DNA of 64,000 nucleotides from Eledone cirrhosa (taxonomy: Eukaryota). The stretch lies in assembly GCA_964016885.1 (NCBI GenBank), contig OZ024746.1:48174001-48238000 (forward strand), written 5' to 3'. Below, one piece after another: positions 15,141 to 15,531 of the stretch. Every line of letters begins with the position of its first letter. The first letter of the stretch is position 1. The notes under the pieces are model-generated. The model ran no database searches and was not told the origin of the DNA. It saw only the letters and a program-made list of their open reading frames with translations. The translations under genes were made by a program, and so were the position numbers.

Positions 15141-15142
<2 letters not shown>

Positions 15143-15531
15143 GATATTAATAAATGGAAACTATATTTTATAAAACCATATTATTTCATTATACATATTT
15201 CAGGGATACCAAATTAAAATATGGTATGCCTTCATCAGACAAAATACAATATATAAACAGTTTCATAAATAATTTTGACGTACCCTATTAGATGCAACCA
15301 TTATTTTTGGAAGCTGTCTGGATAGTGAAATGTTTATTATTTTATTAGTTATAGTGTTAAGCACAATTAGAAAAAGACGGAGAGAAAGAAAGAAAAGACA
15401 GAGAGAGAGAAGGAGAGAGAGAGAAGGACATTAATATCGTATATCTACTCCAAAAACTTGTCGAGTGCTTTATATCAGTTATAAAATATTTACTTGTTGT
15501 ATCCCAACAATTTTAAATAGAACTTTTGCAT
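15141..15531 (-). mobile_element. Second, longer member of the hammerhead-bearing (TA)n-flanked family
   Basis: Shares both ends with 5061-5317; different, longer interior. Confidence 0.7.
15177..15253 (-). ncRNA. Type I hammerhead ribozyme motif
   Basis: Minus: tatattgtattttgt-CTGATGA-aggcatacca...tggtatccct-GAAA-tatgta-TA-atgaaataatatg. Confidence 0.85.

Follow-up and report, generated by a model that had tools for sequence, protein, structure and literature searches.

A short hammerhead-bearing repeat family in Eledone cirrhosa and its possible origin from Penelope-like elements

Two minus-strand sequences in a 64,000-nt stretch of the Eledone cirrhosa genome (GenBank assembly GCA_964016885.1, contig OZ024746.1, positions 48,174,001 to 48,238,000; hereafter the window, to which all coordinates refer) had been described in a first-pass annotation as members of one family having the same termini and the same ribozyme but a different interior. 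The locus thus raises the question whether conserved ends, ribozyme and variable middle make up a single mobile element and, if so, of what kind this element is and how its copies might have been propagated.

Two copies with common ends

The window has a G + C content of 33% and contains many microsatellites and short repeats. The two copies, called copy A and copy B in the following, and the parts of copy B are as follows:

15142..15530, minus strand: whole element, copy B, 389 nt, without an open reading frame
5061..5316, minus strand: copy A, 256 nt, flanked on both sides by the unit of the TA/CATA minisatellite in which it lies
15112..15141, no strand: (TA)n run at the ribozyme (3') end of copy B
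15531..15550, no strand: (TA)n run at the 5' end of copy B
15458..15530, minus strand: conserved 5' terminal segment (against copy A 63 identical positions, 3 mismatches, 4 gap columns)
15327..15457, minus strand: block of about 130 nt missing in copy A, with a CT/AG-rich low-complexity stretch at about 15371-15431; a subfamily trait
15273..15326, minus strand: diverged interior with weak homology to 5191-5244 of copy A (32/54 identical)
15257..15269, minus strand: 5' arm of distal helix I, partner 15167-15179 (pair probability 0.2-0.44 when the whole element is folded)
15239..15246, minus strand: proximal helix I, 5' arm, which pairs with 15182-15189 over 8 bp
15232..15238, minus strand: hammerhead core C3-A9 (CUGAUGA), N7 being 15234
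15202..15231, minus strand: long helix II with a C.C internal mismatch and nine proximal pairs (probability 0.8-0.98)
15191..15201, minus strand: GAAA core (G12-A15.1) and 8-nt self-complementary, loop-less helix III of the dimer type
15189..15190, minus strand: predicted cleavage site, 3' of A17 (15190) in standard hammerhead numbering
15142..15189, minus strand: 48 nt kept downstream of the cut, i.e., the 3' arm of helix I and the terminal segment (against copy A 45 identical, 0 mismatches, 4 gap columns)

With respect to the termini and the ribozyme, the earlier description is borne out by blastn, which aligns the two copies with 89.5% identity over 133 columns at the ribozyme end (E 1e-40) and 90% over 70 columns at the other end (E 2e-19). 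By segment, identical positions, mismatches and gaps amount to 52/5/1 in the ribozyme and 22/2/2 in the upstream arm, and the 5' boundary agrees in both copies to about 2 nt. The conserved 5' terminal segment, which has 2 common variant positions (defined below) in 73 nt, might serve as a promoter or protein-binding site.

The interior, which had been said to be some 130 bp longer in copy B, comprises 185 nt there and 54 nt in copy A, and the copies as a whole indeed differ by 133 nt. That the interiors are largely dissimilar, as had also been stated, applies to the block absent from copy A but not to the ribozyme-proximal 54 nt: in an anchored comparison their identity was equalled by only 23/5000 shuffles and 30/5000 random window segments, while a local, unanchored test gave a weaker result, with 152/2000 shuffles scoring as well. 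Copy B is therefore most readily described as combining an A-like scaffold, by now diverged, with an extra block of some 130 nt. A retained intron (GU of the block at 15457, CAG near 15318) was considered as an explanation of the block and is unsupported, as the donor compares poorly with the usual consensus, no acceptor before helix I is common to both copies, and a better-looking GU at 15493-15492 is changed by a common variant.

Both copies (2/2) are flanked by (TA)n on both sides, copy A by runs at 5033-5060 and 5317-5330. Copy A moreover splits a minisatellite whose unit is found on either side of it (4956, 4998, 5368), which fits an insertion into existing TA-rich sequence. Each copy is a single unit, neither a tandem nor an inverted arrangement as in Penelope-like element (PLE) terminal repeats (pLTRs), which may have a tail of 30-40 bp, being seen in the 64-kb window, in which blastn also detected no third copy. 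Neither copy has a coding remnant in any of the six frames or an open reading frame in or adjoining it, and apart from TA there are no terminal inverted or direct repeats. The latter bears on the proposal that a TA-targeting DNA transposon (MITE) simply carries a chance hammerhead-like sequence, for which the small size, the lack of coding sequence, the high copy number, the conserved ends and the TA context would all be suitable. However, as many as 2874/3000 shuffles of copy B and 112/3000 of copy A score as well for a terminal inverted repeat, whereas a full core with its helices occurs in 0/100 shuffled windows and the variants follow the ribozyme fold (see below); a MITE is accordingly very improbable.

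Several other repeats lie in the neighbourhood. Both copies adjoin a piece of one (CAT)n-tailed repeat (15072-15111 with its motif at 15077, and 5420-5600 with its motif at 5434), a related motif of which is also present at 2815, 4167 and 5631, and this probably reflects a shared TA-rich target habitat. Abundant SINE-like families (D13-D20) are found at 7743-8365, 10739-11174, 15012-15071, 39090-39465, 45623-45819, 56924-57296 and 59767-59947, one SINE-like 3' end being located directly left of copy B. Further features comprise a decayed reverse transcriptase (RT) fragment of a non-LTR retrotransposon at 5740-7100 (minus strand; RVT_1, E 2e-18 for 6676-7080), which is broken by a TA/CATA minisatellite from about 7090, and a near-perfect 134-nt inverted repeat at 41681-41980 (95%, arms 32 nt apart).

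The hammerhead motif and its variation in the family

All 13 core positions of the hammerhead (C3-A9, G12-A15.1, U16.1-H17) are present in both copies; in copy B, CUGAUGA is found at 15238-15232, GAAA at 15201-15198, U16.1 at 15191 and H17, an A, at 15190. The cut previously placed between 15190 and 15189 agrees with standard hammerhead numbering as a predicted site. Helix I of copy B is open and consists of 8 bp and a 13-bp distal extension, helix II has nine proximal pairs, and the 8-nt palindrome of helix III would form a duplex of -2.2 kcal/mol in copy B and -3.2 kcal/mol in copy A. Judged from sequence, the motif is most likely a real type I hammerhead. A structure descriptor, written after copy B had been seen, matched copy B and two hammerheads of a neighbouring, unrelated PLE, with 0 matches in 100 block-shuffled windows; it missed copy A, the helix II of which needs another register. 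At the gathering score Rfam gave 0 matches in the window, missing the minimal hammerheads of the window's PLE as well. A further CUGAUGA at 15855 (minus strand), 300 nt right of copy B and beside a short inverted repeat (15815-15865) ending at (TA)n, failed the descriptor.

Thermodynamic folding yields a mixed picture. The folding energy of the ribozyme region is no better than that of shuffles (z -0.74), and when the element is folded as a whole, helix II comes out as stable (0.8-0.98) and proximal helix I with a probability of 0. An unpaired base after A9 followed by G10.1-C11.1 fits copy A; in copy B the pair would be G.U, and folding favours an A-U register. Hairpins in the 5' end of the element likewise did not stand out from shuffles (z -1.21 to +0.34).

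Conservation of the core cannot be tested by these two copies, since at 89.5% identity the probability of 13 identical core letters is 0.24. Helix II differs between them by 4 substitutions and 1 loop insertion, and had been said to differ in sequence yet still pair. As an instance of covariation this does not stand, no canonical compensatory pair being present among these differences: one restores a pair (U.U to U-A), another alters both sides from C-G to a non-canonical G.A, and a further one turns A-U into A.C, or into G10.1-C11.1 in a shifted register in which the A after A9 is unpaired.

More copies are available from public sequencing runs. Nine of 12 listed runs, all nine without a record as RNA, contain part of the stretch, and at 80% likeness the family is represented by 2184 contigs in run X1 (organism A), 54 in X4 (organism B) and 19 in X9 (organism E). 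These counts cover X1, X4 and X9, with X2, X3, X5-X7 and X10-X12 lying outside them and X8 left out with its 1 contig and 75-nt match; X1, the run with most contigs, may be the source sample. The element is thus a high-copy family. Contig cover is missing at 15376-15427, since repeats were skipped. Because parts of the interior of copy B are represented among the contigs of all three runs (X1, X4 and X9), this interior is a subfamily trait and not a private insertion, and the helix II of copy A was likewise found among contig loose ends in X1 and X4. Other loose ends in X1 extend the ribozyme-side terminus a few letters past that of the two copies, and one 391-nt X1 contig joins the ribozyme end to 268 unaligned nt, which would be either a truncated copy or an interior of a third type.

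Taking as a common variant any substitution that reaches at least 3% of depth in some run, there are 12 common variant positions at 15142-15272 with the runs pooled. None of the 12 invariant core positions is hit, the only core position with a listed variant being N7 (15234; 26, 2 and 2 contigs), which is the position of the hammerhead core that is free to vary. The depletion of the core is not significant by itself (0/12 versus 12/53, p = 0.066 pooled; 0/12 versus 8/53, p = 0.18 in X1), so that the absence of core substitutions, one of the checks proposed at the outset, is seen in the counts but not in the statistics. In the proximal helices, all of the six variants keep a pair (chance 0.0005-0.008 for a transition bias of 2-8), every one being a one-sided wobble transition. 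Changes from G.U to A-U comprise one at 15240 in proximal helix I (37, 2 and 3 contigs of X1, X4 and X9) and one at 15194 in helix III, which is found in contigs as well as in copy A. Near loop II, in distal helix II, 2/5 variants keep or restore a pair and 3/5 break one. Two-sided covariation was not seen in the variant table of the family, which is a per-position table and unable to link two sides.

Common variation hence spares the core and the proximal helices, which suggests selection on the ribozyme. As the variants are inherited subfamily traits rather than independent events, the helices were drawn from copy B and the 80% likeness filter favours conserved contigs, such selection is moderately supported and not proven. 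Concerning the element as a whole, common variant positions in X1 amount to 10/78 in the covered interior versus 10/204 in the two ends (Fisher p = 0.024), and the proposal of conserved ends and a variable middle is upheld by this difference and by the untouched invariant core, though not by covariation between the copies. The ends and the ribozyme are accordingly supported, by sequence comparison, as the conserved unit of the element. DNA pattern scans for the element gave 0 hits in viral contigs and 0 in prokaryote genomes, and two metagenome loci (L001, L002) have only the 20-24-nt seed in common with it, the rest being absent, and are chance matches.

Origin and propagation of the element

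The window contains a truncated PLE (16623-18451), the GIY-YIG C-terminus of which, at 17202-17903 (minus strand; Pfam E 5e-7), is located 1.7 kb from copy B. Its homologues, which combine RT and GIY-YIG domains, are 52-65% identical, and the two named among the four matches are from Octopus bimaculoides (65% and 62%), in keeping with an octopod host. Inverted arms of 93-97% identity flank this fragment in the classic inverted-pLTR layout, and minimal hammerheads of its own, with a 4-nt palindrome, are located at 16775 (minus strand) and 18299 (plus strand). The genome therefore holds endonuclease-containing (EN+) PLEs with hammerheads. This PLE is unrelated in sequence to the two copies, and no autonomous partner with their ends was found in the window.

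We consider it somewhat more probable than all other possibilities together (roughly 0.55) that the family is a short non-coding, high-copy retroelement which derives from the pLTR of an EN+ PLE and is mobilised in trans; in this reading it stands near the dispersed monomers of retrozymes. That an EN+ PLE mobilises it in trans is suggested by the location of this hammerhead type near the 3' end of such elements, several clades of which target (TA)n, and, in addition, by the sufficiency of pLTRs alone for integration in trans as far as described in PMC3846280, together with the hammerhead-bearing EN+ PLEs of this genome. A PLE RT/GIY-YIG protein would nick (TA)n and copy the element RNA from its AU-rich 3' end, the ends holding the cis-signals while the interior drifts or gets swapped. 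Given its palindromic helix III, the ribozyme would be cleaved as a dimer, in line with what is described in PMC4209133 and PMC6765202, and might thus cut only once two motifs pair via this helix. A lone copy that had been cleaved would yield a 5' product lacking the 48 nt beyond the cut, which all copies retain, so that such a product cannot have been the template. Uncleaved RNA may have served instead, or a circle or multimer from tandem source loci; with a circle or multimer, the two ends would form one block in the RNA as in the retrozyme model.

An origin of the copies as passive stumps that do not propagate themselves, i.e., as solo pLTRs or as 3' ends left by 5' truncation in two related subfamilies of autonomous PLEs, would confine any selection on the ribozyme to the autonomous parents. 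In its favour, truncation is the rule among PLE insertions, and PLE hammerheads mostly occur as single motifs, according to the data presented in PMC4209133, and differences between subfamilies in the 3' UTR would yield a pattern of conserved ends too. However, the two copies have a common 5' boundary (within about 2 nt) despite their unequal lengths, no coding remnant accompanies them, and summed contig depth at the 5' end resembles that at the ribozyme end without any decay. In X1 this depth amounts to 0.5-0.85 million over the ends versus 5-38 thousand over 15285-15362, figures that are no copy number and give a weak hint only. Such an origin is therefore considered doubtful.

A similar degree of reserve applies to the assumption that the copies are dispersed monomers of a non-LTR retrozyme, the head-to-tail master arrays of which would be transcribed, the RNA being cut at one hammerhead after the other, closed into circles and, always starting at one position, copied into (TA)n; the two ends would thereby be contiguous in the RNA. 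Monomers of 256-389 nt with low G + C content fit the descriptions in PMC7229834, dispersed monomers and a PLE origin are reported in bioRxiv 10.64898/2026.07.22.740005, and the assumption accounts both for the 48 nt past the cut and for selection on a dimer-type ribozyme. In contrast, neither copy is tandem, and the joints among the 2184 X1 contigs comprise one internal skip and no end-to-start joint, a weak finding given the shortness of the contigs and the loss of 7 joints at repeats in X9. Loose ends in X1 overlap the other terminus of copy A by 4 letters, which may be a head-to-tail junction or plain TG/TA flank. Furthermore, the predicted circles are no better paired than shuffles (z +0.82 for copy A, 100 shuffles; z +0.45 for copy B, 60 shuffles), while the circles of retrozymes have been described as highly self-paired in the accounts compared here.

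In a tentative and rather unlikely further reading, octopods would harbour an abundant, SINE-like class of hammerhead mini-PLEs to which the family belongs. Its RNA would be circular, with the 5' segment following on from the 3' segment across the junction in a single cis-acting block; nicked (TA)n would serve the PLE protein as primer, the circle always being opened at one position, and the interior would be exchangeable cargo. If true, the many copies, with variation sparing the ribozyme in several species, would offer a natural test of the need for hammerhead cleavage in PLE-type retrotransposition, a need called unclear in PMC8557442. Irrespective of this, the value of the family lies in its being protein-free and present in high copy, with variation that appears to spare a dimer-type ribozyme although its copies are single, each of them retaining sequence on both sides of the cut. 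Should tandem masters or circles be found, a link between retrozymes and the terminal repeats of PLEs would be established for an invertebrate, and the role of the ribozyme in PLE copying would be put to the test. The family may also put a name to one of the short repeat families that are unclassified in octopus genomes. For O. vulgaris, PMC13282606 reports 893 'unclassified SINE' families with recent activity; in the searched part of its supplement, which contains no repeat library, the words 'hammerhead' and 'ribozyme' are absent. The literature within the scope of our search, beyond which lie subscription papers, Repbase and Dfam, gave no description of a cephalopod hammerhead repeat family.

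Comparison with known hammerhead-bearing elements

Minimal, palindromic type I hammerheads in the pLTRs of metazoan PLEs were described by Cervera and De la Pena in 2014 (PMC4209133), and their palindromic helix III and cleavage as dimers have been reviewed since (PMC6765202). As far as these descriptions go, the motif studied here resembles them in its type I topology, intact core, long helix II and probable extra A after A9, in its small palindromic helix III and in a helix II bulge as in the D. virilis variant. They occur as thousands of single dispersed motifs, and the present family has many dispersed copies as well. In contrast, its helix I of 8 bp plus a 13-bp extension exceeds the 2-5 bp described, and its helix III palindrome has 8 nt. 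The pair G10.1-C11.1 of the described hammerheads holds in copy A, whereas copy B has G.U, or A-U in the other register. Finally, the described hammerheads sit in pLTRs of PLEs, while no open reading frame was found in or beside either copy of the present element.

With non-LTR retrozymes of animals, as characterised in the sections of PMC7229834 and bioRxiv 10.64898/2026.07.22.740005 compared here, the family shares the absence of coding capacity, a size within 170-400 nt (256 and 389 nt), AT-richness and a type I hammerhead, as well as length variants within a family, dispersed monomers and a dependence on PLEs that has been proposed for retrozymes. It differs from them in that tandem units were not seen and that the predicted circles are not highly self-paired. 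In the retrozyme descriptions compared, no element was found that enters (TA)n with constant ends and differs as widely in its interior as the two copies do.

Solo pLTRs and mobilisation in trans mediated by pLTRs have been reported by Arkhipova et al. in 2013 (PMC3846280). Like the solo pLTRs described there, which are units of about 200 bp, the element is of the order of a pLTR in size and without an open reading frame, and it can be likened to the reported situation in which cis-acting ends suffice for integration and unrelated sequence lies between conserved ends. However, the cargo described there is located between two whole pLTRs and in low copy, whereas the variable part of the present element belongs to the interior of a single unit, which has a single ribozyme.

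For EN+ PLEs, targeting of (TA)n in several clades along with a 3' hammerhead was reported by Craig et al. in 2021 (PMC8557442). In line with the Neptune and Naiad elements covered there, the present family is inserted into (TA)n without a discernible target-site duplication; Naiads lack canonical hammerheads according to that account, in contrast to the full hammerhead core found here. Non-autonomous derivatives are known for Chlamys from the same source. The hammerhead of the family is of the already known PLE/retrozyme type, its mode of action presumably being that of a dimer-type motif at a PLE terminus, and the motif as such is no surprise. The element is real, and since its kind is already known, the family represents a further member.
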